Of a DNA stretch of 30,213 bases, positions 8,236 through 29,742 are shown one piece after another. Positions within the stretch are counted from its first letter, which is position 1, and each line of letters begins with the position of its first letter. Position numbers and translations under genes: made by a program. This DNA comes from Clostridia bacterium (GTDB taxonomy: Bacteria > Bacillota > Clostridia > Oscillospirales > CAG-272). The stretch covers positions 1-30,213 of the forward strand of contig JAKSPV010000001.1 in assembly GCA_024404475.1 (NCBI GenBank), in the 5' to 3' direction. The notes under the pieces were generated by a model that saw only the letters and a list, made by a program, of their open reading frames with translations, ran no database searches and was not told where the DNA came from.

Positions 8236-8238
8236 TCG

Positions 8239-8252
8239 TGTGTATTTATTCA
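8239..8252. promoter_or_regulatory. Putative ARG box overlapping the transcription start
   Basis: TGTGTATTTATTCA: the right half matches the ARG core perfectly, and it lies just downstream of the -10. Confidence 0.6.
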
Positions 8253-8271
8253 AGCGGGCGAGGGCAGCAAC

Positions 8272-9210: not shown

Positions 9211-10421
9211 AACTGATCGAAGGCGGTATATGTGCCGCAAAGGGTTTCACGGCAAGCGGGATCCATTGCGGCATCCGTAAAAATAAAACGAAGAAAGACC
9301 TTTCTCTGATCTGCAGTGAAGTCCGTGCGAATGCGGCGGCGGTCTATACGACCAACCTTGTGAAAGGGGCGCCGCTCCTCGTCACGAAAAAGCACATCTC
9401 CGACGGGCACGCGCAGGCAATCGTCTGCAACAGCGGCAACGCCAACACGTGCAACGCGAACGGTGTGGAGATCGCCGAGAAGATGAGCGATCTGACGGCC
9501 GCCGCCCTCGGCATCTCGCCGGACGACGTCGTCGTCGCCTCGACGGGCGTGATCGGTCAGCCGCTCGACATCGAGCCGATCGCGGCAGGCCTGCCGGTGC
9601 TCGCCGGGACGCTCTCGGATGAGGGCGGGGACGATGCCGCGGAAGGCATCATGACGACGGACACCGTGATGAAGAAAGTCGCCGTCGAATTCACCGTCGG
9701 CGGGAAGACCTGCCGCATCGGCGGCATCGCCAAGGGCAGCGGCATGATCCACCCGAACATGGCGACCATGCTCGTCTTCATCACCACCGACACGGCGATC
9801 TCGTCCGGGATGCTGCAGAAAGCGCTGTCCACGGATATCGCGGACACGTTCAATATGGTCAGCGTTGACGGCGATACGTCGACAAACGATATGGTCGTTG
9901 TGCTTGCCAACGGTCTCGCCGGAAACAGCGAGATCACGGAAGACGGCGAGGATTTCGCCGCCTTCATGAAAGCGCTCAATACCGTGACCGTCCACCTCTG
10001 CCGGATGATCGCCGGCGACGGGGAGGGCGCATCCAAGCTGCTCGAATGCAGCGTCACGGGCGCGAAGGATATCGCCACGGCGAAGACCATCGCGAAGAGC
10101 GTGATCTGTTCTAGTCTTCTGAAAGCGGCGATGTTCGGTGCCGACGCCAACTGGGGGCGTGTCCTCTGCGCGATCGGGTACAGCGGAGCCGACGTTGACG
10201 TCGGAAAGATCGACGTCTCGTTCAGAAGCCCGAAGGGATCGATCGCCGTATGCAGAAGCGGCGCGGGTATCGACTTCTCGGAGGAGACCGCGAAGACGAT
10301 CCTGCTTGAAAAGGAAATCGAAATTCTGGTCGGACTGAACGACGGCAGCGCCGGCGCGACGGCGTGGGGCTGCGACCTGACGTACGAATACGTCAGAATC
10401 AACGGAGATTATCGGACCTGA
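9207..10421 (+). CDS. argJ: Bifunctional ornithine acetyltransferase / N-acetylglutamate synthase
   Basis: NSGNAN, STGVIG, IMTTDT, AKGSGMIHPNMATML autoproteolysis motif, DGDTSTND, DANWGR, WGCDLTYEYVRING. ATGA overlap with argC. Confidence 0.97.
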   Translation: MKLIEGGICAAKGFTASGIHCGIRKNKTKKDLSLICSEVRANAAAVYTTNLVKGAPLLVTKKHISDGHAQAIVCNSGNANTCNANGVEIAEKMSDLTAAALGISPDDVVVASTGVIGQPLDIEPIAAGLPVLAGTLSDEGGDDAAEGIMTTDTVMKKVAVEFTVGGKTCRIGGIAKGSGMIHPNMATMLVFITTDTAISSGMLQKALSTDIADTFNMVSVDGDTSTNDMVVVLANGLAGNSEITEDGEDFAAFMKALNTVTVHLCRMIAGDGEGASKLLECSVTGAKDIATAKTIAKSVICSSLLKAAMFGADANWGRVLCAIGYSGADVDVGKIDVSFRSPKGSIAVCRSGAGIDFSEETAKTILLEKEIEILVGLNDGSAGATAWGCDLTYEYVRINGDYRT

Positions 10422-10437
10422 CGGAGGCGAACACAAG

Positions 10438-12468
10438 ATGAATCAGTTTTCGAATGCGGAACGGGCTGAGATCCTGACGCAGGCGCTCCCGTATATCAAA
10501 CGGTATACGGGCAAGACCGTCGTGATCAAATACGGCGGGAACGCCATGATCGACGAGACGCTGAAAAAGCAGGTCATGGAAGATATCGTTCTTCTGTGGC
10601 TGATCGGCGTCAAGATCGTTCTGGTGCATGGCGGCGGCCCGGAGATCAGCGACCTCATGAACCGGCTCGGCAAAGAGCCGGAGTTCATCGACGGCCTCCG
10701 TGTCACCGACAAGGAAACGGTCGATATCGTGCAGATGGTGCTGGCGGGCAAGGTCAACAAGACGCTCGTCAACCTCCTCGAAATGCACGGCGGCAAAGCG
10801 ATCGGCCTTTCCGGCATGGACGGCGGTATGATCGAGGCGACGGTCAAAAGCGAGAAACTCGGCTACGTCGGCGAGATCACGAAGGTGCATATCGAGCCGG
10901 TGCTGGATATCCTTGAAAAAGGGTATATCCCCGTTGTTTCGACGCTCGGCTGCGACGGAGACGGCAACGTCTATAACATCAACGGTGACACCGCCGCCGC
11001 TTCGATCGCCGGCGCGCTCGGCGCGGAGCGTCTCATCATGATGACCGACATCGCGGGCATTCTGAAAGACAAGAACGATCCCTCGTCGCTGATCCCCGAG
11101 ATCAGTATCAGCGAGGCGGAGAAACTTCACCGCGAGGGGATCATCTCGGATGGCATGATCCCGAAGGTGAACTGCTGCATCGACGCGCTCCGGAAAGGCG
11201 TCAAGAACGTCGTTGTCATGGACGGGCGGGTGCCGCATTCGATCCTCATGGAACTTCTGACCGACGAAGGCGCCGGCACGATGTTTACGGAGAAAAGAGA
11301 TATGACGATCAAAGAAAAAGACTCGCAGTATATTGCCGACACGTACAACCGTTTCCCGATCGTGCTGTCGCAGGGAAAGGGCTCCGTTGTGTGGGATGAG
11401 AACGGCAAAGCGTATATTGACATGGGCTCCGGTATCGGCGTGACTTCCTTCGGCTACGCCGACGACAGATGGCAGGCGGCCGTTTCGAACCAGGCGGCCA
11501 AACTCCAGCACACCTCCAATCTGTATTACACCGAGCCCTGTGCCGTTCTGGCGGAAAAACTCTGTGAGAAGACCGGCATGAGCAAAGTCTTCTTCTCGAA
11601 CTCCGGCGCGGAGGCGAACGAGTGCGCGATCAAGGTCGCGAGAAAGTACGCTGCCGAGAAGAAGGGCGCGGACTGCAACACCATCGTCACGCTAAAAAAC
11701 AGCTTCCACGGCAGAACGCTGACGACGCTTGCCGCTACCGGCCAGGATCATTATCACGAGCTCTACCAGCCGCTGACCCCCGGCTTCGTCAACGTCGATG
11801 CGTATAACATCTACGAGCTCGAGGCGGTCGGCTCCTCCCATAAGATCGCCGCGATCGTCATCGAGTGCATCCAGGGCGAGGGCGGCGTCGTCGATCTCAA
11901 AAAATCGTTCGTCAACGAAGTCGTCGAATACGCACAGCTCCACGATATCCTCATCATCGTCGATGAGGTGCAGACCGGCAACGGCAGAACGGGCAAACTG
12001 TATTCCTACATGAACTACGGCTTCCAGCCCGATATCGTCACGACGGCCAAGGGCCTCGCGGGCGGTCTTCCGCTCGGCGCGACGCTCCTCAGCGAAAAGG
12101 TCAAGGACGTCCTCGGCCACGGCGACCACGGCTCCACCTTCGGCGGTAACCCGGTCTGCTGTGCCGCCGCGATCTCGATCATTGACCGTCTGAACGACGA
12201 ACTGCTCGCGGAAGTCGCAGATAAGGGCAAGTACCTCTTCGACGAGTTCCGCGGCGCCGACGGCATCGTGTCCGTCAGCGGCATGGGCCTCATGGTCGGC
12301 CTCGAAACGAAGAAACCGGCCGCCGAGGTCGTTGCCGAGTGCATGGAGCGCGGCGTCCTCTGCCTGACGGCGAAGGATAAGGTCCGTCTCCTGCCCGCGC
12401 TCAATATCCCGATGGAGGCGCTGCAGAAAGCGGTCGCCGTCATCAAGGAAGTCTGCGCGGAAGCGTAA
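10438..12468 (+). CDS. argB-argD: In-frame fusion of acetylglutamate kinase (ArgB, aa 1-~283) and acetylornithine aminotransferase (ArgD, from Met289 at 11302)
   Basis: ArgB motifs: IKYGGNA, VHGGG, GLRVT, GMIPKV, GAGTMF. ArgD motifs: FSNSGAEANE, SFHGRT, IQGEGG, DEVQTG, TTAKGLAGG, GSTFGGNP. No stop codon between them. Confidence 0.9.
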   Translation: MNQFSNAERAEILTQALPYIKRYTGKTVVIKYGGNAMIDETLKKQVMEDIVLLWLIGVKIVLVHGGGPEISDLMNRLGKEPEFIDGLRVTDKETVDIVQMVLAGKVNKTLVNLLEMHGGKAIGLSGMDGGMIEATVKSEKLGYVGEITKVHIEPVLDILEKGYIPVVSTLGCDGDGNVYNINGDTAAASIAGALGAERLIMMTDIAGILKDKNDPSSLIPEISISEAEKLHREGIISDGMIPKVNCCIDALRKGVKNVVVMDGRVPHSILMELLTDEGAGTMFTEKRDMTIKEKDSQYIADTYNRFPIVLSQGKGSVVWDENGKAYIDMGSGIGVTSFGYADDRWQAAVSNQAAKLQHTSNLYYTEPCAVLAEKLCEKTGMSKVFFSNSGAEANECAIKVARKYAAEKKGADCNTIVTLKNSFHGRTLTTLAATGQDHYHELYQPLTPGFVNVDAYNIYELEAVGSSHKIAAIVIECIQGEGGVVDLKKSFVNEVVEYAQLHDILIIVDEVQTGNGRTGKLYSYMNYGFQPDIVTTAKGLAGGLPLGATLLSEKVKDVLGHGDHGSTFGGNPVCCAAAISIIDRLNDELLAEVADKGKYLFDEFRGADGIVSVSGMGLMVGLETKKPAAEVVAECMERGVLCLTAKDKVRLLPALNIPMEALQKAVAVIKEVCAEA

Positions 12469-19070: not shown

Positions 19071-19095
19071 CGGCATCTCCCGGGGGGAGATGCCG
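19071..19095 (-). terminator. Intrinsic terminator closing the PHP/BMP/ARH operon
   Basis: cggcatctccc-3 nt-gggagatgccg, followed on the minus strand by ttttcttttt. Confidence 0.85.
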
Positions 19096-19113: not shown

Positions 19114-20490
19114 TCAGAGAGCACCGAGCCGCACGGTCTTTTTTGCCAGAGCGCGGATCGAGACTTTCTTGATCTTGCGCATGTACGTGATCAGCTCGTC
19201 ACCGATCGGATCGCGCCATGCGGCGGGAACGTTCTTCCGGGAGGCGATCGCTACGACGCTGGCGATCTGCGCGGCGTTGCAGTCCACGTCGTAGCCCTGC
19301 ATCGCGCTGATATGCATCGTCTCGTCGAAATCGCCCTCGCCGAACCAGAGCGCCACGACTTCCGCGGCAGCGTTCGGGTAGGCGTGGATCCAGTTGTACC
19401 GTTCGTAGCGTTTTTCGCAGACCGCCCACGCTTCCTGCCACGTACCGTGCGTCCGGCACTGTTCGAGCGCAAAGCGGACGACGGAGGCGTATTCGCTTTT
19501 CTCCGGGATCAGGGAGACGGCCTCTTCGACGATCTCGCGGACGTCCGTCTTGACGTAGGCGAGCGACACGAGCACCGCGTTGAAGACTTCGCCGAGCACG
19601 CCGTTGTTGTGGTGGGAGACCTGTCCGTCGGTAAACGCCAGCTTCGCCGCGAGATACGGATCACCGGGCGCGACCATGCCGCACACGGCGCCGCGCATCT
19701 GTGCGCCGATCCATTCGCGGTAGGGGTTGTTGCATCTGCCGCTCTCCGGCGGGAAAATGCCGAGTTTCAGATTTTGCAGCGCACGGTCTTCCGCCGACCA
19801 GCCGGCGGGGATGAGCGCCACCCACTGTCCGGCGATATCCGCCGAGGTGAGCCCTTTGCCGCTCTTTTCGAGCGCCTCGAGAAACGCGAGCTCATAGGTG
19901 ATGTCATCGTTGTAGGTGTTCGGCTTGCGGACGTAGCCGCGGATATCGCCGAAGACCTTTTCGATGTTTTCCTTCGTGTAGCCCTCGATCGCCGTGCCGA
20001 GCGCACCGCCGCAGATCTGTGCGATCCAGCCGTAGTACGTCAGTTCCTCGTAGAGCGGGGAAGACGTGTCGAAATCGTACCGGCGGGGAGAAACGTCTTT
20101 CTCGTAATCCTCAAACGATTCGTACTGTCTGTATTGCCAATAGGGATGCGACGGGATCTTCGGGGCGATGTTCAGAAGACGGAAAACTTCGGCGGCGAGA
20201 CGCATCATCTCGGCGTAGTCTTTCTTTTCCACAGCCGCGGCGCCGGCGTCAATCAGCTTTTCCACCTCGGAGACGTCGTAGCCCATGTTCTCCATGTCCT
20301 GCATGGCGGCAACGATAACGTGCTCGGTCGCACCGGAGCCGGGGACGTTGCTGTGCCAGAGAAGCTCTGCCGCGCGGTTTTGCTCAAGAGCGGAATCTTC
20401 ACAGTCCTTCCAGCCCTGCTCCTCTTCTTCGAGGACGACGGGAATGGAGGTCCGCATCGTTTCGCATTCGATTTCCCATGCTTTTTTCAT
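19114..20490 (-). CDS. ADP-ribosylglycohydrolase (ARH/DraG superfamily) with a ~140-aa N-terminal extension
   Basis: GWIAQICGGALGTAIEG, NDDITYE (TDD-like), WIGAQMR, DGQVSH, GYDVDCNAAQ (DxD metal motif). Confidence 0.85.
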   Translation of the reverse strand: MKKAWEIECETMRTSIPVVLEEEEQGWKDCEDSALEQNRAAELLWHSNVPGSGATEHVIVAAMQDMENMGYDVSEVEKLIDAGAAAVEKKDYAEMMRLAAEVFRLLNIAPKIPSHPYWQYRQYESFEDYEKDVSPRRYDFDTSSPLYEELTYYGWIAQICGGALGTAIEGYTKENIEKVFGDIRGYVRKPNTYNDDITYELAFLEALEKSGKGLTSADIAGQWVALIPAGWSAEDRALQNLKLGIFPPESGRCNNPYREWIGAQMRGAVCGMVAPGDPYLAAKLAFTDGQVSHHNNGVLGEVFNAVLVSLAYVKTDVREIVEEAVSLIPEKSEYASVVRFALEQCRTHGTWQEAWAVCEKRYERYNWIHAYPNAAAEVVALWFGEGDFDETMHISAMQGYDVDCNAAQIASVVAIASRKNVPAAWRDPIGDELITYMRKIKKVSIRALAKKTVRLGAL

Positions 20491-20499
20491 ATTGGTTCC

Positions 20500-21408
20500 T
20501 TACTTTTCCTTTTTGTTTTTGTTGATGACCGCGTAGATGACGAGCGCCGCGATCGTCATGAGATAGGGCAGCGTGTTGAGCAGCTCGTAGGGGAACGTCA
20601 GAACGGTCTGCGCCCCCACGGAGAAGTAGTCCACCGCACCGAACAGGAGTGAGAAAAACGCGGTGCGCCAGGGACTGCCGAGCCCCATCGCCTCCGCCGC
20701 GATGCCGATAAAGCCGCGGCCGGCGACCATGCCCGCCGAGAAATACTGCAGGTAGCTCATCGAGAGGAAAGCGCCGCCGAGACCGGCGAACACGCCGCAG
20801 ATGATGAGCGCCTTGACCTTGACGACCCTCGTCCGGATGCCGACGCTTTCGGCAACCGCGGGGTTGAAGCCGGTCGCCTTGATCTCCGTGCCGAGCTTCG
20901 TTCTGCGGAGCAGGAACGAGAGGAAGATCGCCGCGAGAATGGCCACGTAGAAGAGAACGCTCTGGTCGAAAAGCAGTTTCCCGATGACGGGAATATCGCG
21001 CAAAACGGGAATGGAGATTTTCGGGATGGCAACGGCCGCCGCGGCGGACGAGTCACCCTTGACGCCGAGCACGGCGTAGAGCACGTAAACGCTGAGACCC
21101 GTTGCCAGCGTGTTGAGCGCGATACCGGAAAGGAAACTGTCCGTCCGGAGCCGCAGCGCGGCGAGCGCGAGCAGCAGCGACATGAGAACGCCGACGGCCG
21201 CCGCGGTCAGAAGACCGAGCACCCAGCTGTTCGTAAAGTGGCTGACGAGCGTGCCGCAGACGGCGGCGACGGACATGCTGCCTTCAATGTTGATGTTGAC
21301 GATGCCGGCACGGTTCGAGATCAGCGCCGCGAACGCCGCGAATACGATCGGCAGCGCGAACATCACGGAACTCAGAAGAAAATCTTCGCTGAAAATAAAT
21401 CCGATCAT
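20500..21408 (-). CDS. ABC transporter permease (BPD_transp_2, nucleoside/BMP type)
   Basis: RAGIVNINIEG, RTKLG.EIKATGFNP, GVFAGLGGAFLS, AGRGFIGIAA, LPYLMTI. Confidence 0.92.
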   Translation of the reverse strand: MIGFIFSEDFLLSSVMFALPIVFAAFAALISNRAGIVNINIEGSMSVAAVCGTLVSHFTNSWVLGLLTAAAVGVLMSLLLALAALRLRTDSFLSGIALNTLATGLSVYVLYAVLGVKGDSSAAAAVAIPKISIPVLRDIPVIGKLLFDQSVLFYVAILAAIFLSFLLRRTKLGTEIKATGFNPAVAESVGIRTRVVKVKALIICGVFAGLGGAFLSMSYLQYFSAGMVAGRGFIGIAAEAMGLGSPWRTAFFSLLFGAVDYFSVGAQTVLTFPYELLNTLPYLMTIAALVIYAVINKNKKEK

Positions 21409-22493
21409 TTCGCCGCCTCCGTTTTCTTCCGGGAGAACTTCATATCCCAGAGGAATTTCGCGCCGAACAGAATGATGATCACGCCCTGGATGATGTAGAT
21501 GATCTCATTCTGCACGTCAGTATAAAGCGACATCTGCTGCGCACCGACGCGGAGGTACGCGAGGAAGAGCGACGCCAGCGGGACGAGCGCGGGATTGTTC
21601 CGCGCCATGATCGCGATGACGAACCCGTCGAAACCGTAGTTCGGCAGGGCTCTCCAAGAGAAGCGGTAATAGTTGCCGAGCAGGTACACGCCGCCGCCGA
21701 AGCCGGAAAGACCGGCGCCGATGAGCTGGCTGTACACGACGACGGAGCCCGTCCCGATGCCGACGTAAGACGCGAACTGCGGGTTGTCGCCGGTCATGCG
21801 GATCGCATAGCCCCATTTGGTCTTGTAGAGGAACAGCGCACCGAGAACGGCCGCCAGAACGGCAAAGAGAATGCCGACGGAGAGCTCGTTGTCCTGATTC
21901 AGAAACGGCAGCTTGGCGTAGTCCTCGAGATATTTCGTGACGTTGGTGTTGTCGGGATCACCGCAGACGTTGTTGACGAAATAAAGGACGACCCAGAGCA
22001 CGACGTAGTTAAGCATCAGCGAGGAAACGAACTCGTCCACGCCGAGCGCGGCTTTGAGTTTGGCGGGGATGTAGCCGATGAGGACGGCTGCGAGCGTGCC
22101 GCAGAGGATGCAGAAGAGCGGGACGAGGAACGAGGAACCCTCGCTTGCCAGCTCCGGCGCGAGAACGGCGGCGACGAAGGCGCCGACGAAGAATCCGCCC
22201 TCGACGAACATGTTGAACTGACCGGCGCGGGACATGATCGACACCGCGACACCCGTGAACATCAGCGGGATCGACTCGGTAAGCACGCGGCTGAGCGTGT
22301 AGCTGTCTTCAAACGGGGAAGTGAGGAAAACGCGGACGGTCTCGAAGGAGCCCTTGCCCGCGACGAGGATCACGGCGACGGCGAATGCCAGCGAAAGCGC
22401 GAGCATGACGAGCGTCTTTGCGATCTCGCCGAGAACGCTTTTCGCTTCCTGCCCGGAAACACAGCGGCGGAAGCGGTCAATGATATCAACCAT
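21405..22493 (-). CDS. ABC transporter permease (BPD_transp_2, nucleoside/BMP type)
   Basis: Start re-called at ATG 22493 (RBS GGAGGT). RAGQFNMFVEG, DEFVSSLMLNY, TKWGYAIRMTGDNP, YGFDGFVIA. Confidence 0.92.
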   Translation of the reverse strand: MVDIIDRFRRCVSGQEAKSVLGEIAKTLVMLALSLAFAVAVILVAGKGSFETVRVFLTSPFEDSYTLSRVLTESIPLMFTGVAVSIMSRAGQFNMFVEGGFFVGAFVAAVLAPELASEGSSFLVPLFCILCGTLAAVLIGYIPAKLKAALGVDEFVSSLMLNYVVLWVVLYFVNNVCGDPDNTNVTKYLEDYAKLPFLNQDNELSVGILFAVLAAVLGALFLYKTKWGYAIRMTGDNPQFASYVGIGTGSVVVYSQLIGAGLSGFGGGVYLLGNYYRFSWRALPNYGFDGFVIAIMARNNPALVPLASLFLAYLRVGAQQMSLYTDVQNEIIYIIQGVIIILFGAKFLWDMKFSRKKTEAAK

Positions 22494-24009
22494 GCTGCAC
22501 CTCCATACGTTCCAGACCGAGCATATACCGGCCGAGCTGTACCTCGTCAACGGAAGAAACGTCCGTGATATCGGCGGTGATCTCGCCGTCGTGGAAGACG
22601 ATGATCCGGTCCGCGAGACTGAACACCTCGGCGAGATCGGCGGAAACGAGGATCACGGCTTTGCCTGCGTCGCGCATGGCGACGATGCGTTTGTGGATCG
22701 TCTCGATCGCGCCGATATCGACGCCGCGCGTCGGCTGATCGGCGACGATGAGTGCGGGATCGCTGTCGAGCTCGCGTGCCACGACGACCTTCTGCATGTT
22801 GCCGCCGGAAAGCATGCCGATCTTCTGGTTCAGCGTGCCTTTGATGCCGTAGTCGGCGATCTGCCCGCAGCTTCTTTCCCGCAGCTTTTTCGTTTTGAGA
22901 AAACCGAGACGGCTGTTCTCGGCGTAGTCGAGCGCGATCAGATTGTCGCAGATCGACGCCGCCGTGTTGCAGCCCGTCGTCATGCGGTCTTCCGGAATGT
23001 GGGAGAGACCGAGTTTCCGGATCTTGCGGATCTTCATGCCGGCGACGTTCACCCCGCCGAAGCGGATTTCGCCGGTATATTTCCTGTTCAGCCCGCAGAC
23101 GGAGCGGACGACTTCGCGCTGACCGTTGCCCTCGACACCGGCGATACAGAGGATCTCGCCGCGGTGCGCCGAGAAACTGACGCCGCTGACGGCGTTCCTG
23201 CCGCCTTTGCCGCGTACCGTAAGGTCCGTGACCGTGAGCAGCGCCTCACCGGGCTGTGCCTTTTCTTTGTCCACCTTCATCTGCACGTCGCGCCCGACCA
23301 TGAGCCGGGAGATCTCCGCTTCGGAGACGTCGCTGATGTTGTAGACGCCGACGTTCTCGCCCTGCCGCATGATCGTCACGCGATCGCAGAGCGCCATGAT
23401 CTCTTTGAGTTTGTGGGTGATGATGATGATCGTGTAGCCGCTCTTTTTCAGAAGACGGAGCTGCCCGAAAAGCTGTTCGGTCTCCTGCGGCGTCAGAACG
23501 GCGGTCGGCTCATCGAGAATGAGGAGTTGCGCGCCGCGCGCCAGGACGGTCAGGATCTCGATCTTCTGCGCGGTGGAAGCGGAGACGTCGGCGGCGCGAG
23601 CCGTGAGATCGACGTGCATATCGTACTTCTCGCAGAGCTCCTCCGCACGGCGGATCATCTCTTTCTTTTTGAGGACGCCGAGGGCGTTTTTCTCCTCGAT
23701 GCCGAAGAAGATGTTTTCCCACGCGGTGAACTGACCGACCAGCATGAAATGCTGATAGACCATGCCGATGCCGAGCGCGCCTGCGGCGCGCGGCGAGTTG
23801 ATGCTGACTTTCCGACCGTCGAGAAAGATCTCGCCGTCGGCTTTTTCGGCGCCGTACAGCACTTTCATGATCGTGCTTTTGCCGGCTCCGTTTTCGCCTG
23901 CAATGGCGTGGATCTCACCCTTTTCGATGGAAAGATTCACGTTTTTGTTGGCAACGACACCGCTCGGGTAGACCTTCGTGATGCCGCGCATTTCGATGTA
24001 ACCGGACAT
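22486..24009 (-). CDS. ABC transporter ATP-binding protein, tandem NBD (CUT2/NupA type)
   Basis: GENGAGKST, GMVYQHF, ILDEPTAVLTPQE, GVEGNGQ, LSGGNMQKVV, QPTRGVDIGA. Confidence 0.95.
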   Translation of the reverse strand: MSGYIEMRGITKVYPSGVVANKNVNLSIEKGEIHAIAGENGAGKSTIMKVLYGAEKADGEIFLDGRKVSINSPRAAGALGIGMVYQHFMLVGQFTAWENIFFGIEEKNALGVLKKKEMIRRAEELCEKYDMHVDLTARAADVSASTAQKIEILTVLARGAQLLILDEPTAVLTPQETEQLFGQLRLLKKSGYTIIIITHKLKEIMALCDRVTIMRQGENVGVYNISDVSEAEISRLMVGRDVQMKVDKEKAQPGEALLTVTDLTVRGKGGRNAVSGVSFSAHRGEILCIAGVEGNGQREVVRSVCGLNRKYTGEIRFGGVNVAGMKIRKIRKLGLSHIPEDRMTTGCNTAASICDNLIALDYAENSRLGFLKTKKLRERSCGQIADYGIKGTLNQKIGMLSGGNMQKVVVARELDSDPALIVADQPTRGVDIGAIETIHKRIVAMRDAGKAVILVSADLAEVFSLADRIIVFHDGEITADITDVSSVDEVQLGRYMLGLERMEVQHG

Positions 24010-24011
24010 TT

Positions 24012-25181
24012 TTATTTGGACGGGTCGAGTCTGTCAAACAGCGCGTTGAGATCGGCGGAAGACGTATAGCGTTTCAGACCGCTCTGCACGGTCAGCTCGC
24101 CGGAGACGATCTTCGCGGCAACGTCCGCGAGATACGCTCTGTTTTCTTCGGAAACGAGGGCACGGAAGTTTTCATTGTCCGCGTAGCCGATCTTGCCGTC
24201 GGCAACGCCGAGGACTTCGAGGTCGCCGTAGGTCAGCGTGCCGGTCATGAACTTCTCGCACGCTTCGTAAAGTGTATCACCGACGCGCTTCTCGATCGAC
24301 GTGACGATGACGGCCGCCTTGTCGGGATCGGAATCCTTGTAGTAGGCGTACTGGTCGCTGTCGACGCCGATGATCGTCTTGCCGCCGAGCTTCGCCGCTT
24401 CGATGCAGCCGATGCCTGCCTGGCTGGCCGCTGCGAAGAGGATAGAAACGTCGTTGTTGTAGTAGGCCTGTGCAAGAGATTTGCCCTTCGGGCTGTCAAC
24501 GAAGTCGCCGATGAAGGCGTGGTAAGCGCCGATCGACGAGGACTTGTCGGCATTGACGGCTTCGACGCCCTGCATGAAGCCGGAGGCGAAGTCGTTGATG
24601 ATATCGTTCGCCGCACCGCCAATGAACGCGGTGTTGGCAGCGCCGCTTTCGAGCGACAGAAGTCCCGCGAGAACGCCGGCGAGATAGCCGCCCTCGTTCT
24701 GGCTGAACATGATGGAGTGTACGGTCGGATAGTCAGCCGCTTTACCGTCCTTGATCTCCGTGTCGAAAATCACGAAGCGGCGGTCGGCGTATTTCGATTT
24801 CTTCACGAGGCGCTGGAGCGGCTCGCGCATGTCAGTCGTGCCGACAATGATGAGATCGTATGCCTCAGCGGCGGTCTTGGCAAGGAGGGACTCATACACG
24901 GTCGCGTCGCTCGAACCCATTTCCACGATCTTCACTTCCGCTTCGGGGTGATCAGCCTGGAAGCGGAGCATGCCCTCGTTGGCGGAGTCCCAGAAGGACA
25001 TATCGCCGAGGTCGCCGTTGATGAGCAGCGCCACGCGGAATTTTCCGTCATCGAGAGAGGCAACGCCGGAAGAGGAGGGGTCGGAAGGCCCCGCGGGATC
25101 GTCGTCGCACGACACGAGGGATACGGCGAGAGCCGCCGTCATAAGAAGCGCCAGAAGAAGCGCGGTGATCTTTTTAAACAT
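24012..25181 (-). CDS. BMP family substrate-binding lipoprotein (PnrA/NupN/RfuA-like)
   Basis: Signal peptide ending LVS-C; GDLGDMSFWDSA, EGGYLAG, FAAASQAGIG, GVDSDQY, TSIEKRV. Confidence 0.92.
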   Translation of the reverse strand: MFKKITALLLALLMTAALAVSLVSCDDDPAGPSDPSSSGVASLDDGKFRVALLINGDLGDMSFWDSANEGMLRFQADHPEAEVKIVEMGSSDATVYESLLAKTAAEAYDLIIVGTTDMREPLQRLVKKSKYADRRFVIFDTEIKDGKAADYPTVHSIMFSQNEGGYLAGVLAGLLSLESGAANTAFIGGAANDIINDFASGFMQGVEAVNADKSSSIGAYHAFIGDFVDSPKGKSLAQAYYNNDVSILFAAASQAGIGCIEAAKLGGKTIIGVDSDQYAYYKDSDPDKAAVIVTSIEKRVGDTLYEACEKFMTGTLTYGDLEVLGVADGKIGYADNENFRALVSEENRAYLADVAAKIVSGELTVQSGLKRYTSSADLNALFDRLDPSK

Positions 25182-25241
25182 GTTCGTATACTCCTATGCA
25201 TCAAATACATCAAAAAACTTTTTGTCGGAAAAAGCCATAAG

Positions 25242-25269
25242 GCGGCGGAGCCCCGGGGGACTCCGCCGC
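25242..25269 (-). terminator. GC-rich intra-operon hairpin (partial terminator or mRNA stabiliser)
   Basis: gcggcggag-10 nt-ctccgccgc, 10 nt after the DUF4430 stop codon, with only a weak downstream U-tract. Confidence 0.5.
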
Positions 25270-25279
25270 GTCGCCGGAA

Positions 25280-25741
25280 TTACCAGACTACTTCTTCAAA
25301 GCTGTAAAGGAGGTAATCGCCTTCAAAGACGTGAACGTCGTTGCAGGCAAAGTTCGTGGGGTTGTTGCCGTTGTACTGCCACATCCAGTAGGTGTTGGTG
25401 TTCGCGTCGTTGACGTAGCTGCCGATGGAGGTCACGAAGCCGACTTCGAGGCCTTCCTGGGACAGTTCTTTTTCTTCAACGGCTGCCTTGAAGAACTCGG
25501 AAGCGTACAGCGTGTCGCTGGTGAGCTTCACAGTGCCGCAGTAGAGCACGGTGTCGCCGGCAACGATCTTGACGTTGGCGGTAACGGTGCCGGCCCATTC
25601 GGAATGGCCATCCACTTCGGAAACGGTCGTGTCGGTGCCGACTTCAAACGGTGCCTTCGGAGCTGCGGGTTCATTGTTGCAAGAGCAAGCGAGAACGCAA
25701 ACCATTGCAAGCACGAGGAACAGAGCGGTGAGTTTTTTCAT
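25280..25741 (-). CDS. Small lipoprotein with a DUF4430 (transcobalamin C-terminal-like) domain
   Basis: Signal peptide ending LACS-C. C-terminal GFVTSIGS...YWMWQYNG...D.HVFEGD pattern typical of DUF4430. RBS AAGGAG. Confidence 0.7.
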   Translation of the reverse strand: MKKLTALFLVLAMVCVLACSCNNEPAAPKAPFEVGTDTTVSEVDGHSEWAGTVTANVKIVAGDTVLYCGTVKLTSDTLYASEFFKAAVEEKELSQEGLEVGFVTSIGSYVNDANTNTYWMWQYNGNNPTNFACNDVHVFEGDYLLYSFEEVVW

Positions 25742-25791
25742 GGTACTTCTCCTTCAAAAAGTTTTTTATTTGATACGGCTTTTTGCCGTGA

Positions 25792-27315
25792 TCAACGAAT
25801 GAATACGGGGTTCGAGATCGCGTAGATCGCTTTCGCGCCGAGCACTTCGACGAGCACCCAGTCGCCCGAGACGAGCGAGGAGATCGTCACGTCACCCTCG
25901 AACGAGGTGCCGTTCACTTCGATCTCGCGGACGGTCTCGCCGTTCACGACGAAGCGGATCTTTTCCATGCCTTCGCGGCACGTTACGCTGCCGCTGAAGG
26001 TGAGTTCACCGCTTTCGGCGTCGGCAGTCTCGCCGAAGATCGCGCCGTTCGCGGTGAGGGTCATAACGGGGCCGTTCGTCAGGTAGGAGTGACCGTTCCT
26101 GACGGCGTCGAGAATGTTCTCCTGGTTGATCTCGCTGTCGCCGAGGTACACGTAGGTGGCGATGCAGCCGCTGTACTTGCCGGCGTAGCGGCAGTAGTTT
26201 TGGTACTCGGAGAGCTTCGTGAACGTCTCCGGGAACTGATTGCGGACTTCTGCGGAGGCGTAGCCCGTGGAGTCGTGGTTGTCCGTACCGCTGGTCGCGG
26301 CGATGAACGCGCCGCCTTCCTTGACGCGGTTCAGAAGCGAATACCAAAGGAGTTTCGCCTGGTAGTTCTGGTTGTCGGTGTTCATCGTTTCAAACCGGCC
26401 GTCGGGCACCGTGAAATATGAGTTCCAGATCTCAATGGTGTCAAAGTTTTCGAACAGTTCGTAGTCGGTCGCGTCGAGAAAGTTCATCGCGCCCATGTTG
26501 GTGATCGAGTACGGGTGGTTGATCTGCGAAACGCCGCCCTGCAGGCGGATCTGCCGGGCGATGTAGACGATCTTGTCGCGGCAGATGGCGTTCTTGTCCT
26601 TGTTGGCGCGTTCCGCGTCGGTCAGGTTGATCTCATACTTGTCGTAGGTCATGCCGGTGCCGATGCTCTGGAAATGACCGAATTCCGTCGTGACTTCGCT
26701 GCCCGCCATGCCGAGGAAATTGCGGTGCGCGCCGGCCGCGTCCGTCAGAACGTTGATCGCGTTCGTTTCACGCCATTCCGGAACGCCGCGGGAGGTGTTG
26801 TGGTCGGTCAGGAAGCCCCAGTACATGCCGGTCGCCGCATTGGCAATGGCGAGGTCGGTAATGGAATCCGCGCCGTCGGAATAGGTGCTGTGCATGTGGA
26901 GGTCGCCGGCGATCCAGCCGTCTGCATACGAATCGGAAAGCTGATTCAGACGCACGTCGCGGAGGAAGTACGTTTTCAGACTTTCGACTTCGATCGTCGT
27001 CGTATAGGTGTTGAATTCAAAGCCCTTGGTGAAGGTCAGCGTGTATTTGCCGGGCGCCAGCTCGAGGTGATAGCCGCCGAAGGCGTTCGTCGTCTCCATG
27101 TGGCAGTTGTTTTCTTCGTCCACGATGATGATGCCGGCGATCATCATGTCGCCGTCGCCGGACAGGACCTTGCCGCGCACGTTGCCGGCAGGCGCGGAGG
27201 TGTTATCCGTGATGACCGCCGGGGTGTCGGCTTCCTCTTTCCCACAGGAGAAAAGGGCGGCCGGAAACATCAGAACGGCAAGCAGCAGAGAAACGAAACG
27301 CAGTGTCTTTTTCAT
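25792..27315 (-). CDS. PHP-superfamily metallohydrolase lipoprotein (CehA/McbA-like) with an N-terminal beta-sandwich
   Basis: Signal peptide ending LFS-C; carboxypeptidase-regulatory-like module (LELAPGKYTLTFTKG). Full PHP ligand set: GDLHMHS..SDG, TDHN, GSEVT..GH, INHP, IEIWN, GTDNH, GHSYLTNGP. Confidence 0.85.
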   Translation of the reverse strand: MKKTLRFVSLLLAVLMFPAALFSCGKEEADTPAVITDNTSAPAGNVRGKVLSGDGDMMIAGIIIVDEENNCHMETTNAFGGYHLELAPGKYTLTFTKGFEFNTYTTTIEVESLKTYFLRDVRLNQLSDSYADGWIAGDLHMHSTYSDGADSITDLAIANAATGMYWGFLTDHNTSRGVPEWRETNAINVLTDAAGAHRNFLGMAGSEVTTEFGHFQSIGTGMTYDKYEINLTDAERANKDKNAICRDKIVYIARQIRLQGGVSQINHPYSITNMGAMNFLDATDYELFENFDTIEIWNSYFTVPDGRFETMNTDNQNYQAKLLWYSLLNRVKEGGAFIAATSGTDNHDSTGYASAEVRNQFPETFTKLSEYQNYCRYAGKYSGCIATYVYLGDSEINQENILDAVRNGHSYLTNGPVMTLTANGAIFGETADAESGELTFSGSVTCREGMEKIRFVVNGETVREIEVNGTSFEGDVTISSLVSGDWVLVEVLGAKAIYAISNPVFIR

Positions 27316-27355
27316 GAAAATCTCCCCATTCCGCTGTACAATATTTAAAATCGTA

Positions 27356-27384
27356 TTGACAACTATCTAATCTAATGATATGAT
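27356..27384 (+). promoter_or_regulatory. sigmaA promoter of the AraC gene
   Basis: TTGACA-17 nt-TATGAT with a TGn extension. Confidence 0.75.
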
Positions 27385-27423
27385 CTTTTTATACAGATTT
27401 CAAGCGGAGAAAAACCAAAAACC

Positions 27424-28317
27424 ATGCAGTTTGATTCAAATGTTGCAATTTTCGACACGGTCGATTTGTCGATCGAGCACCCTTTTTCGCCGGAGGGCTC
27501 GCTTTTCACTTATTATCCGTCCGCGTCGCCGAAAATGTTCCATTATCATAACTTTCTGGAGCTCGGTTACTGCGAAAGCGGCACGGGCGTGTTCAACATC
27601 GACGGCCGACCCGTGCCGTTCCACGGCAGGTGTACGTCGGTGATCTATGACGGGCAGGTGCATATCGCACAGAGCATCAACAGCGAGGGAAGTCTCTGGC
27701 ATTTTCTCTATATCGACCTCAACTGCCTCTTCGCCGACTGTGAATTCGCCGGCGTCGATTTTCTGAAACGGATGAAATTTAATAACTGGAAAAATTACGA
27801 GTTCCCGTCGATTTTGCCGGAGGCGGAGTATCCGGCGTTTTACGCGCTTTGCCGTGATATTCTGGACGAGTGCGCCGCCATGCGCGGCAACGCGATCCAG
27901 ACGGTGCAGGGGCTGACGTATTCGCTTCTCAAAAAGCACGAGCGCCTTTTTGCCGAGATGCCCGCCGCCGTCCGGCAGCGCGGGAGCGTCCCGAGCCTCG
28001 TGCAGGAACTCGGCCCGACCCTGAACTACATCAACAAGAACTACCGCGAAAACATCACGATCGACGACCTCGTCTCCGTCGCCAAAATGAGCAAGAGTAA
28101 CCTCCAACGGAAGATGATCGCCTGCACGGGAAAAGCGCCGGTGCAGTATATCCGTCATCTGCGGCTGAAATACGCGACCGCGCTGCTTCTGGACGATACG
28201 AAAACGGTCGCGGAGATCGCGGAACTTGTCGGTTATAACCTTTCGAGTTTCAACCGCCAGTTTCTGAAAGAGTACGGGGTGACGCCTACGGCATGGCGGA
28301 AAAACGGAACGATCTGA
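27424..28317 (+). CDS. AraC/XylS family transcriptional regulator with a cupin sensor domain
   Basis: FHYHNFLELGYCESGTG cupin; LNYINKNYRENITIDDL, LRLKYATALL, AELVGY..SSFNRQF.KEYGVTP..WR. Confidence 0.93.
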   Translation: MQFDSNVAIFDTVDLSIEHPFSPEGSLFTYYPSASPKMFHYHNFLELGYCESGTGVFNIDGRPVPFHGRCTSVIYDGQVHIAQSINSEGSLWHFLYIDLNCLFADCEFAGVDFLKRMKFNNWKNYEFPSILPEAEYPAFYALCRDILDECAAMRGNAIQTVQGLTYSLLKKHERLFAEMPAAVRQRGSVPSLVQELGPTLNYINKNYRENITIDDLVSVAKMSKSNLQRKMIACTGKAPVQYIRHLRLKYATALLLDDTKTVAEIAELVGYNLSSFNRQFLKEYGVTPTAWRKNGTI

Positions 28318-28356: not shown

Positions 28357-28386
28357 CGGCGGGGAAGCAAATCCCCGCCGGTTTTT
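28357..28386 (+). terminator. Intrinsic terminator after the AraC gene
   Basis: cggcgggga-6 nt-tccccgccg followed by gttttt. Confidence 0.8.
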
Positions 28387-28426: not shown

Positions 28427-28455
28427 TTGACTTTTTCGCAGGATAGAGTTATAAT
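28427..28455 (+). promoter_or_regulatory. sigmaA promoter of the polysaccharide locus
   Basis: TTGACT-17 nt-TATAAT. Confidence 0.8.
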
Positions 28456-28515
28456 TACTATGTCTAACTATAATCTAAGGAAGTGTGCGCTCGGTTGCGA
28501 CGGAAAGGCAGAACA

Positions 28516-29742
28516 ATGGAACTGAAACCGTTCGAAAAAAGAATATGGCTTTCCTCACCGACGATGCACGGCGAAGAACTCCGGTATATGACCGAGGCAT
28601 ACTCGACCAACTGGATGTCGACGGTCGGTGAAAACATCAATGAAATCGAGCGTATTGCCGCCGCAAAGATCGGTGTCGGTTACGCCGTTGCTCTTTCTTC
28701 CGGTACGTCTGCGCTCCACATGGCAACGAAACTGGCCGGCGAGCGTCTGTACGGAAAAACGGCATTGGGGAAAGGCGCTCTTTCCGGCCACCGAGTTTTC
28801 TGCTCGGATATGACGTTCAGTGCGACCGTCAACCCGGTTGTCTACGAAGGCGGCGTTCCCGTGTTCGTTGATACTGAGCGCGGCACGTGGAACATGAGCC
28901 CCGCTGCTTTGGAAAAAGCGTTTGCCGAATATCCGGATGTCAAACTGATTGTTACTGCACATCTTTACGGCACGCCCGGCCGGATCGACCGGATCCGTGA
29001 GATCGCCGACCGACACGGGGCGCTCCTCGTTGAGGATGCCGCGGAATCCTTCGGCGCTTCGCTTGGCGGAAAACAGACCGGCTCGTTCGGTGATTACGGC
29101 TGCATCTCGTTCAACGGGAACAAGATCATTACCGGCTCATCCGGCGGGATGTTCCTGACGGATACGAAAGAGGACGCGGAAACGGTGCGGAAATGGTCGA
29201 CGCAGAGCCGCGAGAACGCACCATGGTACCAGCACGAGGAACTCGGTTATAACTACCGTATGAGCAATGTCATCGCCGGCGTCGTTCGCGGCCAGCTGCC
29301 GCATCTCGAAGAACATATCGCGGCAAAAAAAGCGATCTACGAGCGGTACCGGGACGGCTTCCGCGACCTGCCCGTCACGATGAATCCGTTTGACGCTGAC
29401 CATACGGAGCCGAATTTCTGGCTTTCCTGCCTTCTCATCGATGAGGAGGCGATGTGCTGCCAGACGAGAAATGATTCGGCTGCCGCCTATACGAAAGAGC
29501 AGGGCAAGACCTGTCCGACGGAGATCCTCGAAACGCTTGCCGCGTACCGCGCGGAGGGAAGACCGATCTGGAAACCGATGCATATGCAGCCCATTTTCAA
29601 GGCAAATTCCTTTGTTTCTCTTGAGGGGGAAGACGTCGGTGCTGATATTTTCCGGCGCGGGTTCTGTCTTCCGTCTGATAACAAGATGACTCCTGACGAG
29701 CAGGACACCGTGATCGCGATCGTCAGAAAATGTTTTGCGTGA
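28516..29742 (+). CDS. DegT/DnrJ/EryC1/StrS sugar aminotransferase (PglE/EpsN-like)
   Basis: Start re-called at ATG 28516. ALSSGTSALH, TFSATVNP, HLYG, EDAAES, SFNGNKIIT (PLP Lys), GYNYRMSN, RPIWKPMH, GFCLPS. Confidence 0.93.
   Translation: MELKPFEKRIWLSSPTMHGEELRYMTEAYSTNWMSTVGENINEIERIAAAKIGVGYAVALSSGTSALHMATKLAGERLYGKTALGKGALSGHRVFCSDMTFSATVNPVVYEGGVPVFVDTERGTWNMSPAALEKAFAEYPDVKLIVTAHLYGTPGRIDRIREIADRHGALLVEDAAESFGASLGGKQTGSFGDYGCISFNGNKIITGSSGGMFLTDTKEDAETVRKWSTQSRENAPWYQHEELGYNYRMSNVIAGVVRGQLPHLEEHIAAKKAIYERYRDGFRDLPVTMNPFDADHTEPNFWLSCLLIDEEAMCCQTRNDSAAAYTKEQGKTCPTEILETLAAYRAEGRPIWKPMHMQPIFKANSFVSLEGEDVGADIFRRGFCLPSDNKMTPDEQDTVIAIVRKCFA

Follow-up and report, generated by a model that had tools for sequence, protein, structure and literature searches.

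Some bacterial operons join proteins predicted to act outside the cell to an importer and a cytoplasmic hydrolase, which raises the question of what compound is captured, how it is processed on its way in and what the cell gains from it. Such an operon is present in the 30,213-nt stretch of DNA of a Clostridia bacterium that was analysed here (the window). At a probability of about 0.6, its genes specify a catabolic or salvage route for a phosphorylated ribose-containing compound, here called a phospho-riboside.

Organization and control of the locus

Seven co-oriented genes on the minus strand encode a lipoprotein of the CehA/McbA-type PHP family, a DUF4430 lipoprotein, a BMP substrate-binding protein, an ABC ATPase, two permeases and a 458-aa ARH-fold protein (Table 1). 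The set is bounded by a divergent promoter region, held in common with a cupin-AraC gene, and by one strong terminator. From the PHP gene to the ARH gene the spacings are 50, 98, 2, -8, -4 and 9 nt, the 8-nt overlap being that between the stop of the ATPase gene and the likely start of permease 2 (ATG at 22493, behind a GGAGG). The first-pass annotation had described seven co-oriented genes closed by one terminator and divergent from a cupin-AraC gene, with which the open reading frames, the spacings and the terminator (19095-19071) agree. The PHP, DUF4430 and BMP proteins all have an N-terminal lipoprotein signal peptide with a lipobox Cys. Just two short contigs of one metatranscriptome matched the locus exactly.

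Table 1 Features of the operon and of the adjoining regulator gene (positions in the window)
Feature	Position	Strand	Evidence
Terminator 3' of the ARH stop (intrinsic)	19071-19095	(-)	11-bp stem, 8 GC pairs, T run
Long-form ARH-fold hydrolase, 458 aa	19114-20490	(-)	ADP_ribosyl_GH (PF03747) 8e-44, residues 154-415 only
ABC permease 1, 302 aa	20500-21408	(-)	BPD_transp_2 1.1e-28; 4-nt overlap with permease 2
ABC permease 2	21405-22493	(-)	BPD_transp_2 3.6e-36
Tandem-domain ABC ATPase, 507 aa	22486-24009	(-)	Two ABC_tran domains
BMP/PnrA-type lipoprotein, substrate-binding protein, 389 aa	24012-25181	(-)	Pfam Bmp (PF02608) 1.6e-43
DUF4430 (transcobalamin beta-domain-like) lipoprotein, 153 aa	25280-25741	(-)	PF14478 29.9 bits vs 23.8; lipobox
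Surface PHP (CehA/McbA-type) trimetal hydrolase lipoprotein, 507 aa	25792-27315	(-)	NF038032 and PHP fold
Divergent promoter/regulatory region of operon and AraC gene	27316-27423	both	Promoter-like sites facing each other
Promoter-like site, operon side	27403-27375	(-)	10/12 match
Promoter-like site, AraC side	27356-27384	(+)	11/12 match, extended -10
Cupin-AraC regulator, 297 aa	27424-28317	(+)	AraC_binding, Cupin_2, HTH_18
Terminator after the AraC gene	28357-28380	(+)	9-bp stem, 8 GC pairs, T run

The two facing promoter-like sites together span 27356-27403. On its other side, the AraC gene is set apart by a terminator from the gene of a DegT-type aminotransferase. The cupin-AraC protein is presumed to be a ligand-responsive activator of the operon. 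An orthologue is divergent from the PHP gene in many loci with the same set of PHP, DUF4430 and BMP-ABC genes (type 1; 41-55 % identity in the first set). Control by AraC, as put forward in the first-pass annotation, is lineage-specific, and many relatives carry a LacI regulator. A ribokinase gene is absent from the operon of the window, and among the PfkB proteins encoded elsewhere in the genome the best match is only 34 % identical.

Folds and ligand residues of the encoded proteins

In the PHP protein, the signal peptide with its lipobox is followed by a beta-sandwich (residues 44-123), a PHP barrel (approximately 134-430) and a C-terminal beta-sandwich (438-506). The protein scores 190.5 bits against the CehA/McbA metallohydrolase profile NF038032 (cut-off 80) and 23.9 bits against Pfam PHP, slightly below the gathering score of 26.4. 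No sequence-level match was obtained in a search of the PDB, and the AF2 model (pLDDT 90.9) gave 3e38, TM0559 (2anu), RNase AM (7ug9/9etk) and Cv1693 (2yb1) as the best folds. The ligands of a trinuclear metal site (His-x-His, His, Glu, His, His, Asp-x-His) are all present, and no variation was seen among 33 homologues at H140, H142, D147, H172, E207, H214, H267, D345 or H347. The PHP nucleotide phosphoesterases RNase AM/TrpH, the pAp phosphatase Cv1693, TM0559 and BVU_3505 resemble the protein in the barrel and the full His/Asp/Glu ligand set and are its best fold matches, and the modelled closeness to such enzymes would favor a phospho-riboside as the starting compound. They differ from it in being cytoplasmic proteins of one or two domains with at most 19 % identity to it, whereas the PHP domain of the window is part of a surface lipoprotein and lies between two beta-sandwich domains. 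Phosphoesterase chemistry is not certain, because CehA and McbA, after which the subfamily is named, are carbamate hydrolases.

The DUF4430 protein is presumed to bind a ligand at the cell surface. Its family profile matches 3u7z (E 0.003) and, weakly, residues 383-432 of the haptocorrin beta domain 4kki (E 0.0096).

The nearest solved chain to the BMP protein is TmpC/PnrA (2fqw, 7e-25). In BmpA, Asp98, Asp225 and Lys242 bind the ribose, and Phe27 and Phe176 form an aromatic sandwich (PMC13325309, PMC7093131). Alignment to TmpC and BmpA showed that the BMP protein retains the Asp/Asp/Lys set for ribose and the Phe/Phe sandwich known from PnrA, the motifs IFD, GVDSDQ, EKR, MSF and GDF standing at matching positions, and the pocket residues agree with the ribose- and base-binding residues named in PMC13325309. 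Judged from these residues, the protein has a complete nucleoside pocket. The alignment has a gap at Asp27, the base-reading residue of TmpC, which has no counterpart in the BMP protein, and specificity can therefore not be transferred nor the identity of the ligand inferred from TmpC. The best NCBIfam relatives of the ATPase are sugar/nucleoside-type CUT2 ATPases, every one of them under its cut-off. The PnrA, TmpC, BmpD and BmpA importers share with this system the BMP fold, the lipoprotein anchor, a tandem ATPase with two permeases, the Asp/Asp/Lys set and the Phe/Phe sandwich, but they work in nucleoside salvage, and genes for ARH, PHP or DUF4430 are not linked to them.

The long ARH protein consists of a conserved helical N-terminal extension (residues 1-150) and the ARH core (154-415). 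It has no signal peptide and is presumed to be a cytoplasmic riboside hydrolase. Its AF2 model (pLDDT 94.9) matched MJ1187, ARH3, DraG and ARH1 in Foldseek with a probability of 1.0 and TM scores, by target, of 0.7-0.77; the nearest reviewed proteins by fold are AF_1724, MJ1187 and E. coli YegU, all of them uncharacterized. In this family, a binuclear metal site is carried by two acidic motifs, T/S-D-D and D-x-D-T/S, to which a Glu after the G-D-A-L-G block is added. E169, N194-D195-D196 and D401-V-D403-C404 stand at the positions of the metal and catalytic motifs of DraG and MJ1187 and vary little or not at all among 34 homologues, albeit with Asn194 in place of Thr, Cys404 in place of Thr/Ser and GGALG in place of GDALG. 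To our knowledge, the characterized ARH enzymes all act on ADP-ribosyl conjugates and none acts on free ribosides. An HTH-ARH fusion is encoded elsewhere in the same genome.

Distribution and variants of the gene set

The first-pass annotation had proposed a survey for co-occurrence of the gene families. Anchored on the long ARH gene, this survey covered 58 non-redundant loci for the types of module, 83 with a usable flank and 45 with both flanks. A BMP-ABC or CUT1 importer stands beside the ARH gene in 76 of the 83, across Bacillota and Spirochaetota, the genes overlapping at start and stop or lying a few bases apart. Type 1, in which PHP, DUF4430 and BMP-ABC occur together, was found in 26 of the 58 loci, and BMP-ABC with one or two nucleoside hydrolases of the IUNH type, sometimes together with a deaminase-like amidohydrolase, in 22. 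In all 26 type-1 loci the DUF4430 gene adjoins the PHP gene, and none of them has an IUNH gene. The full set of PHP, DUF4430, BMP-ABC and ARH is conserved in 26/26 comparable loci, which is far beyond chance. PHP and DUF4430 are strictly coupled and were seen only beside BMP-ABC-ARH.

A ribokinase homologue is present near the long ARH gene in 36 of the 45 loci with both flanks. The PfkB copies that were scanned in loci L040 and L017 pass the ribokinase equivalog TIGR02152 (321.6 and 350.1 bits, respectively, vs 299.65), and the first of the two IUNH proteins scanned in L017 passes the RihA cut-off. When the PHP protein was used as the anchor, every look-up (36-42 % identity) gave the order PHP-DUF4430-BMP-ABC-ARH-ribokinase. 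Since a ribokinase gene usually closes the conserved unit, ribose is the likely pay-off. The carriers are gut anaerobes with small genomes.

Two lineages (L061/L080 and L066) have the long ARH gene with an UgpB-like importer and a cytoplasmic TrpH/RNase AM-like PHP protein, which replace BMP and the surface PHP; the UgpB-like call for the binding protein is under the family cut-off, sugar-binding proteins scoring nearly equally. These variants indicate that the association of PHP with ARH does not depend on the side of the membrane on which PHP is placed, and they support a phosphorylated riboside as the starting compound. Other operons combine homologues of the cytoplasmic PHP with a short ARH, a HAD phosphatase and PfkB kinases.

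A candidate phospho-riboside route and its alternatives

From the gene content, the lipoprotein signals, the folds, the conserved residues, the co-conservation and the alternative module types, we infer the reactions of the following route, the direction of flow, the role of DUF4430 and the kind of substrate. The DUF4430 lipoprotein would hold the compound, or a bulky precursor of it, outside the cell, where the surface PHP protein would take off a phosphate (mono- or diester) that would block uptake. The BMP protein would then bind the riboside, with Asp/Asp/Lys gripping the ribose and the two Phe residues sandwiching a flat aglycone, and the ABC system would import it. In the cytoplasm, the long ARH protein would cut the ribosyl bond and so release the aglycone and free ribose. 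A true ribokinase, encoded next to it in most relatives but missing from the operon of the window, could turn the ribose into ribose 5-phosphate. The operon would be turned on with sugar or riboside by the cupin-AraC protein, or by LacI in other lineages. An outside-to-inside pathway had been proposed by the first-pass annotation; it fits every comparative result (the PHP-DUF4430 coupling, the BMP pocket and the cytoplasmic-PHP variant), but the ribokinase ending was not foreseen. Likewise, that annotation knew of no described pathway with this gene set, and none combining these families was found in the literature searched.

As to the substrate, the odds are a little short of even that it is an unusual riboside that IUNH and PNP enzymes cannot split, such as an alpha- or O-linked riboside, the kind of linkage in all characterized ARH substrates, or a modified nucleoside. 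Ordinary nucleotides derived from RNA or NAD have perhaps one chance in three, and lower-ligand alpha-ribosides of cobamides are improbable. The genome has IUNH and four PNP_UDP_1 genes elsewhere, and the long ARH is a rare protein, found in 2 of 398 sampled Clostridia; both points speak for a special substrate and not for a housekeeping one.

The operon might instead serve plain scavenging of nucleotides and RNA, with PHP as a nucleotidase or exonuclease on extracellular RNA and NMPs, BMP importing canonical nucleosides and ARH as a non-homologous replacement of IUNH/PNP that splits ordinary beta-nucleosides. The closeness of the PHP fold to RNase AM and Cv1693, the canonical PnrA pocket, the ribokinase linkage and the small genomes of the carriers would all suit such a role, as would the type-1 loci, in which ARH is the sole glycosidic enzyme. 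This explanation is nevertheless rather unlikely, since in 22/58 loci the long ARH stands beside one or two IUNH genes, with which it is then not redundant, and the genome is already equipped with IUNH and PNP enzymes. The long ARH, although rare, is 45-73 % identical across the sampled phyla, which fits a specific substrate; we know of no ARH-fold enzyme that cleaves beta-N-nucleosides, and DUF4430 would be left unexplained.

A kinase-first order, comparable to the breakdown of pseudouridine by YeiC/YeiN, in which PfkB phosphorylates the riboside at the 5' position and ARH then frees ribose 5-phosphate and the aglycone, appears improbable. ARH-PfkB adjacency is nearly universal and mirrors yegU-yegV, the PfkB kinases of the short-ARH sister operons are not true ribokinases, and the known ARH substrates all carry a 5''-phosphate. 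Against it, both PfkB proteins scanned in long-ARH loci exceed the ribokinase equivalog cut-off, ARH has no adjacent kinase in the window or in locus L063, and removal of a phosphate at the surface followed by renewed phosphorylation of the same compound would be less economical.

Salvage or remodelling of the cobamide nucleotide loop, which the first-pass annotation had listed among the candidate substrates, is disfavored and has quite a low probability. DUF4430 would grip the lower face of the corrinoid, PHP would cut the phosphodiester of the loop, the resulting alpha-riboside (alpha-ribazole or a purinyl analogue) would be imported and an alpha-specific ARH would free the lower base. The weak haptocorrin match of DUF4430 points this way, characterized ARH enzymes cleave alpha-linked ribosyl bonds, cobamide lower ligands are the common alpha-N-ribosides of nature, and CbiR is said to be a precedent for a loop-cutting phosphodiesterase. 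However, CobS, without which a lower ligand cannot be re-attached, was not found in genome G000 (76 % complete) and was detected in just 1 of 10 genomes with the PHP-DUF4430 type, absences that are weakened by the incompleteness of the MAGs. Moreover, neither the window nor 18 related loci yielded a cobalamin riboswitch, the cluster has no corrinoid transporter, the close linkage to ribokinase and the variants with IUNH speak for ribose catabolism, and cobamide amounts are too small as a source of ribose.

That ARH is a genuine de-ADP-ribosylating enzyme (for a protein, DNA or small-molecule modification), merely co-located with an unrelated nucleoside importer, is suggested by the family name and fold and by the HTH-ARH fusion of the same genome, but is very improbable given the absence of a nearby ADP-ribosyltransferase partner, the tight importer adjacency in both phyla and the fact that the ARH gene keeps its place despite a change of transporter type in at least two lineages.

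Among known systems, the phospho-riboside route comes closest in logic to E. coli yegTUV, which combines the NHS-type nucleoside transporter YegT, the ARH-family protein YegU and the PfkB kinase YegV under one dedicated repressor, GgaR/YegW. YegU, to which no function has been assigned (PMC10819704), ranks third among reviewed proteins in structural similarity to the ARH core (TM 0.71 by hit). The importer of yegTUV is an MFS carrier, its regulator belongs to the GntR family rather than to AraC or LacI as in the window and its relatives, and it has neither a surface PHP nor DUF4430. YegU is only 17 % identical to the ARH protein of the window, which has the conserved 150-aa extension in addition. 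Of a yegTUV-like set, the window has an importer, of another class, and the ARH but no PfkB, which is adjacent in 36 of 45 related loci; the kinase of the relatives is a true ribokinase. The Rus loci of gut Bacteroidetes similarly join ribokinase(s), a transporter and variable cleaving enzymes to free ribose from varied sources, and ADP-ribosylglycohydrolases and phosphoesterases are named among these enzymes (Glowacki et al., bioRxiv 10.1101/574913). They are SusC/D-based PULs with RusR regulators, whereas the window is that of a Firmicute with lipoproteins and a BMP-ABC importer.

Cofactors and nucleotides that contain ribose, together with the products of their breakdown, make up a pool of nutrients in guts and anaerobic digesters that has been little charted. 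The operon ties three families without an assigned function, the long ARH, the surface CehA/McbA-type PHP and DUF4430, into one conserved, regulator-controlled putative pathway, the clear input and output sides of which provide defined targets for ligand screens and enzyme assays. More speculatively, the long ARH may be the first catabolic small-molecule glycosidase of this fold, specific for ribosyl bonds that are beyond the reach of nucleoside hydrolases (alpha-N-ribosides, among them those of cobamide lower ligands, or the alpha-O ribosyl-ribose from NAD or poly(ADP-ribose) breakdown), fed by PHP-DUF4430 as a new extracellular device for capture and dephosphorylation. If true, this would deorphanize three families at once and hint at the function of YegU. 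The ARH substrate, once identified, would extend the ARH fold from signalling by de-ADP-ribosylation to catabolism, and would give a lead for yegTUV of E. coli and for the ARH genes of the Bacteroides ribose-utilization loci.

Organization of the operon and its predicted products

The seven co-oriented genes, their spacings, the terminator and the divergent cupin-AraC gene of the first-pass annotation were found to be correct in every detail checked by open reading frames, family matches and reading of the terminator. The intergenic distances along the operon are 50, 98, 2, -8, -4, and 9 nt; the overlap of 8 nt depends on the start ATG at 22493, which is preceded by GGAGG. The stop of the ADP-ribosylglycohydrolase (ARH) gene is followed, 18 nt on, by a strong terminator with an 11-bp stem and a T run, and the 108-nt spacer common to the operon and the cupin-AraC gene holds promoter-like sites facing each other. 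An Rfam scan of the window revealed no family. The DegT/LegC aminotransferase gene heads a separate plus-strand unit with a promoter-like site of its own and is located outside the operon.

Coordinates of the operon genes, neighbouring features and features of other loci (window positions unless a contig or locus is named)
Feature	Position	Strand	Evidence or remark
CehA/McbA-type PHP metallohydrolase, 507 aa	25792-27315	-	NF038032, 190.5 bits (cut-off 80)
DUF4430 protein, 153 aa	25280-25741	-	family match
BMP binding protein, 389 aa	24012-25181	-	family match
Tandem ABC ATPase	22486-24009	-	family match
Two BPD_transp_2 permeases	21405-22493, 20500-21408	-	family match
Long ARH, 458 aa	19114-20490	-	ADP_ribosyl_GH, 8e-44, residues 154-415
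Cupin-AraC gene	27424-28317	+	own terminator
DegT/LegC-family sugar aminotransferase	28483-29742	+	PF01041, 2.9e-77; LegC-type model, 282.9 bits, under its cut-off
Promoter-like site of the aminotransferase unit	28427-28455		
Metatranscriptome contigs (run X20)	20890-21148, 25879-26115		permease 1, PHP gene
HTH-ARH fusion, 526 aa, contig C72	L002:733-2313	+	XRE-type HTH_3 (7-61), complete ARH domain (185-484)
IU_nuc_hydro match, contig C83 (L050)	C83:1541-2374	-	inside a 712-aa open frame
Variant nucleoside cluster	L132:8256-19045		
TPP riboswitch with thiT	L132:7265-8032		unrelated to the cluster
Sister operons with short ARH	L145, L146, L147, about 3700-12350 each		

Because PHP, DUF4430 and BMP each start with a signal peptide and a lipobox cysteine, all three are predicted surface lipoproteins of a Firmicute; no signal peptide was found in the long ARH. 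The PHP model (pLDDT 90.9) has the PHP barrel between two sandwich domains, the N-terminal one being carboxypeptidase-regulatory-like. All of its expected metal ligands are invariant, and the nearest folds are those of BVU_3505, TM0559, RNase AM, and the pAp phosphatase Cv1693. Alignment of BMP with TmpC/PnrA and BmpA showed that both stacking Phe residues and the ribose-engaging Asp/Asp/Lys are kept but that the base-reading Asp27 of TmpC is absent, on which grounds its ligand should be a riboside whose aglycone is flat. The DUF4430 family profile weakly matches the DUF4430 structure 3u7z and the haptocorrin beta domain. The window carries a single-domain form. In several lineages DUF4430 is a tandem duplication of about 293 aa, and across many lineages the two-domain protein encoded between PHP and BMP has about 290-330 aa, as in L006, L009, L011-L015, L037, L068, L070-L076, L084, L089, and L095.

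The core of the ARH model (pLDDT 94.9) superposes on MJ1187, ARH3, DraG, and ARH1, and the closest reviewed proteins are AF_1724, MJ1187, and E. coli YegU, all three uncharacterised. Profile alignment to DraG/MJ1187 places E169 on the catalytic Glu and N194-D195-D196 and D401-x-D403-C404 on the two metal-binding motifs. These residues vary little or not at all, which makes an active enzyme probable. Conservation of the helical N-terminal extension, 150 residues long, equals that of the core (P17, W45, G51, Q64, G70, and G83 are invariant), and no named relative of the extension was found in the ESM Atlas. Sequence searches of the PDB with the ARH, PHP and DUF4430 proteins gave no match; relatives were reached only by profiles and folds. 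Elsewhere in the window's own genome (a 76%-complete MAG), contig C72 encodes a fusion of HTH and ARH domains, which shares about 28-34% identity with the ARH of the operon. It would be unusual for a transcription factor to have an ARH domain as its sensor or enzyme part.

Conservation and variation of the gene set

To distinguish a real gene set from a chance neighbourhood, searches were anchored on three different proteins, ARH and PHP among them, and the gene content of relatives was mapped by tblastn. The ARH-anchored set comprised 128 loci, forming 92 clusters at 90% ARH identity; its named members, with 45-73% identity to the ARH of the window, belong to Clostridia, Bacilli, Acholeplasmatales, and Spirochaetes. 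An importer adjoins the long ARH in 76 of the 83 non-redundant loci with usable flank. Among the 58 loci with at least 7.5 kb upstream, 26 carry PHP, DUF4430 and BMP-ABC beside the long ARH, as does the window, and 22 carry BMP-ABC with one or two IUNH hydrolases, with or without an amidohydrolase. BMP-ABC alone, again with or without an amidohydrolase, is present in seven, a CUT1 importer with a cytoplasmic PHP in one, and none of these sets in two. PHP co-occurs with DUF4430 in 26/26 loci and never with IUNH in this census, which shows that the surface PHP and DUF4430 are strictly coupled and, as a module, exclusive. IspDF, ProRS, and HAD genes further downstream in the IUNH-type loci were set aside as housekeeping synteny outside the system. 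A cultured carrier of a locus of this type is Anaerovirgula multivorans SCA (NZ_FZOJ01000012.1), and Caldanaerobacter subterraneus likewise has an orthologue of the long ARH.

The PHP-anchored search yielded only about 120 relatives, and three of the most divergent of these (36-42% identity) all lie in PHP-DUF4430-BMP-ABC-ARH-PfkB(-LacI or AraC) loci. Among 400 evenly sampled Clostridia genomes, the window's own genome aside, no PHP orthologue was found and there were otherwise two partial matches of 32% identity; the long ARH was present in 2 of 398 sampled genomes, again not counting the window's own. The system is seldom found and patchily distributed over the phyla, and its conservation as a unit is high. 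The PHP, DUF4430, BMP, and ARH genes, grouped as one system in the first-pass annotation, are conserved together both in the 26 loci and in the three divergent ones. The operon is a real, conserved feature, probably a form of riboside and nucleoside scavenging operon made from three orphan families.

Of the 45 loci for which both flanks are available, 36 have a PfkB gene either after ARH or next to the regulator, and the two copies scanned exceed the ribokinase equivalog cut-off (321.6 and 350.1 bits vs 299.65). From this linkage and the ribokinase-grade scores, the usual end product of the pathway is predicted to be ribose 5-phosphate. The window's operon has no PfkB gene and terminates directly past ARH, a shortened form also seen in locus L063; the best PfkB match elsewhere in its incomplete genome, on contig C108, is 34% identical. 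Control by AraC, as originally proposed, is consistent with the window's closer relatives, in which an AraC gene diverges from the PHP gene, but a LacI regulator takes its place in Acholeplasmatales, Bacilli, and the IUNH-type loci.

In L017, the sole IUNH-type locus scanned, the first IUNH scores above the RihA cut-off, the second is RihC-like, and the amidohydrolase resembles MTA/SAH/5'-deoxyadenosine deaminases, below their cut-offs. By these family assignments, the IUNH-type locus clearly reads as one for nucleoside catabolism in which ARH is retained beside ordinary hydrolases. A variant cluster in L132 contains LacI, a PNP_UDP_1 phosphorylase, the long ARH, BMP-ABC, a second short ARH (343 aa), PfkB, and IUNH, that is, four different glycosidic-bond enzymes within one nucleoside operon; a TPP riboswitch with thiT lies just upstream. 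Usual IUNH enzymes have about 310 aa, and the far longer frame on contig C83 of the window's genome may represent a multidomain or surface form.

In two lineages, L061/L080 (99% identical) and L066, whose ARH is 70% identical to that of the former, the long ARH follows a CUT1 importer. The binding protein is most similar to UgpB glycerol-3-phosphate/glycerophosphodiester binders (best PDB matches 9lff, 6x84, and 4aq4; best NCBIfam family UgpB, score under its cut-off), and the gene between it and the permeases encodes a cytoplasmic PHP of 291 aa, of the TrpH/RNase AM/pAp-phosphatase kind. Because of this variant, ARH is seen together with a PHP in two settings, with PHP outside the cell and a nucleoside-type importer or with PHP inside and an importer related to carriers of phosphorylated cargo. 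Such a pattern would be expected if the natural starting compound were a phosphorylated riboside whose phosphate has to be removed ahead of cleavage by ARH.

Homologues of the cytoplasmic PHP (47-58% identity) are found in DeoR-controlled operons with an SBP, PHP, two permeases, a HAD phosphatase, a short 339-aa ARH, and PfkB. A partial alignment gives the short ARH just 24% identity to the long form, and the kinases are not true ribokinases; these operons are taken to be a sister system resembling yegUV. In L145, L146, and L147, divergent PfkB and DeoR genes face the UgpB-like SBP side of such an operon, which continues with a TrpH-like cytoplasmic PHP, two CUT1 permeases, the short ARH, and PfkB. 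The HAD gene accompanies the divergent PfkB in L147 and lies in the main operon in L145 and L146. Neither L145 kinase attains the ribokinase cut-off. This operon looks like an ABC version of yegUV plus phosphatases.

Proposed pathway and its substrate

The reading with the best support is a phospho-riboside scavenging pathway, whose reactions are all inferred; the analysis itself established the gene content, the localisation signals, the residues for catalysis and ligand binding, and the co-conservation. DUF4430 would capture the compound at the surface, where PHP would dephosphorylate it; the riboside would then be imported by BMP-ABC, the long ARH would cleave its ribosyl bond in the cytoplasm and ribokinase, where present, would phosphorylate the ribose. 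The outside-to-inside route of the first-pass annotation is retained in this scheme, and clipping of a phospho(di)ester before ribosyl cleavage is in line with the association of the long ARH with PHP on either side of the membrane.

As a less likely alternative, the operon may serve plain nucleotide or RNA scavenging. A substrate beyond the reach of ordinary nucleoside hydrolases is favoured because ARH coexists with IUNH in 22 loci (one scanned IUNH being RihA-grade), because the window's genome has IUNH and PNP genes elsewhere, because the system is rare, and because alpha-linked ribosyl bonds are the known target of every characterised ARH enzyme. The cobamide nucleotide loop, one of the candidate substrates originally listed, is made attractive by DUF4430 and by this alpha-specificity, but CobS was not found in the 76%-complete genome of the window and was found in just one of the 10 genomes that carry the PHP-DUF4430 type, an absence weakened by incomplete MAGs. 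No cobalamin riboswitch precedes the window's operon or any of 18 related loci, which is likewise weakened by MAG incompleteness, and there is no linked corrinoid transporter. An Rfam search of the window and these 18 loci for a ligand-naming riboswitch gave only the unrelated TPP riboswitch before thiT and tmRNA. Given the negative CobS survey and riboswitch search, the cobamide loop was rejected as the main reading.

The phospho-riboside pathway finds its nearest described logic in E. coli yegTUV, with a nucleoside transporter, an ARH, and a PfkB kinase, the function of which is still open (PMC10819704). ADP-ribosylglycohydrolases without known substrate are also among the variable enzymes of the Rus loci of Bacteroidetes (10.1101/574913). 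PnrA-type importers account for the uptake part of the operon. The searched literature contained no description of the PHP, DUF4430, BMP, and ARH combination, in agreement with the first-pass annotation, and no characterised pathway was found in that on yegU, DUF4430, or ARH with ribokinase, nucleoside hydrolase, or cobamide.

Near-identical DNA was found in runs labelled gut or feces metagenome and recorded as from animals. A horse-gut metatranscriptome contained two short contigs identical to the window, neither of which spans two genes, a weak indication of expression of the operon in the equine gut or of DNA carry-over. The operon opens a direct way to establish by experiment what would be the first catabolic function of the ARH fold.
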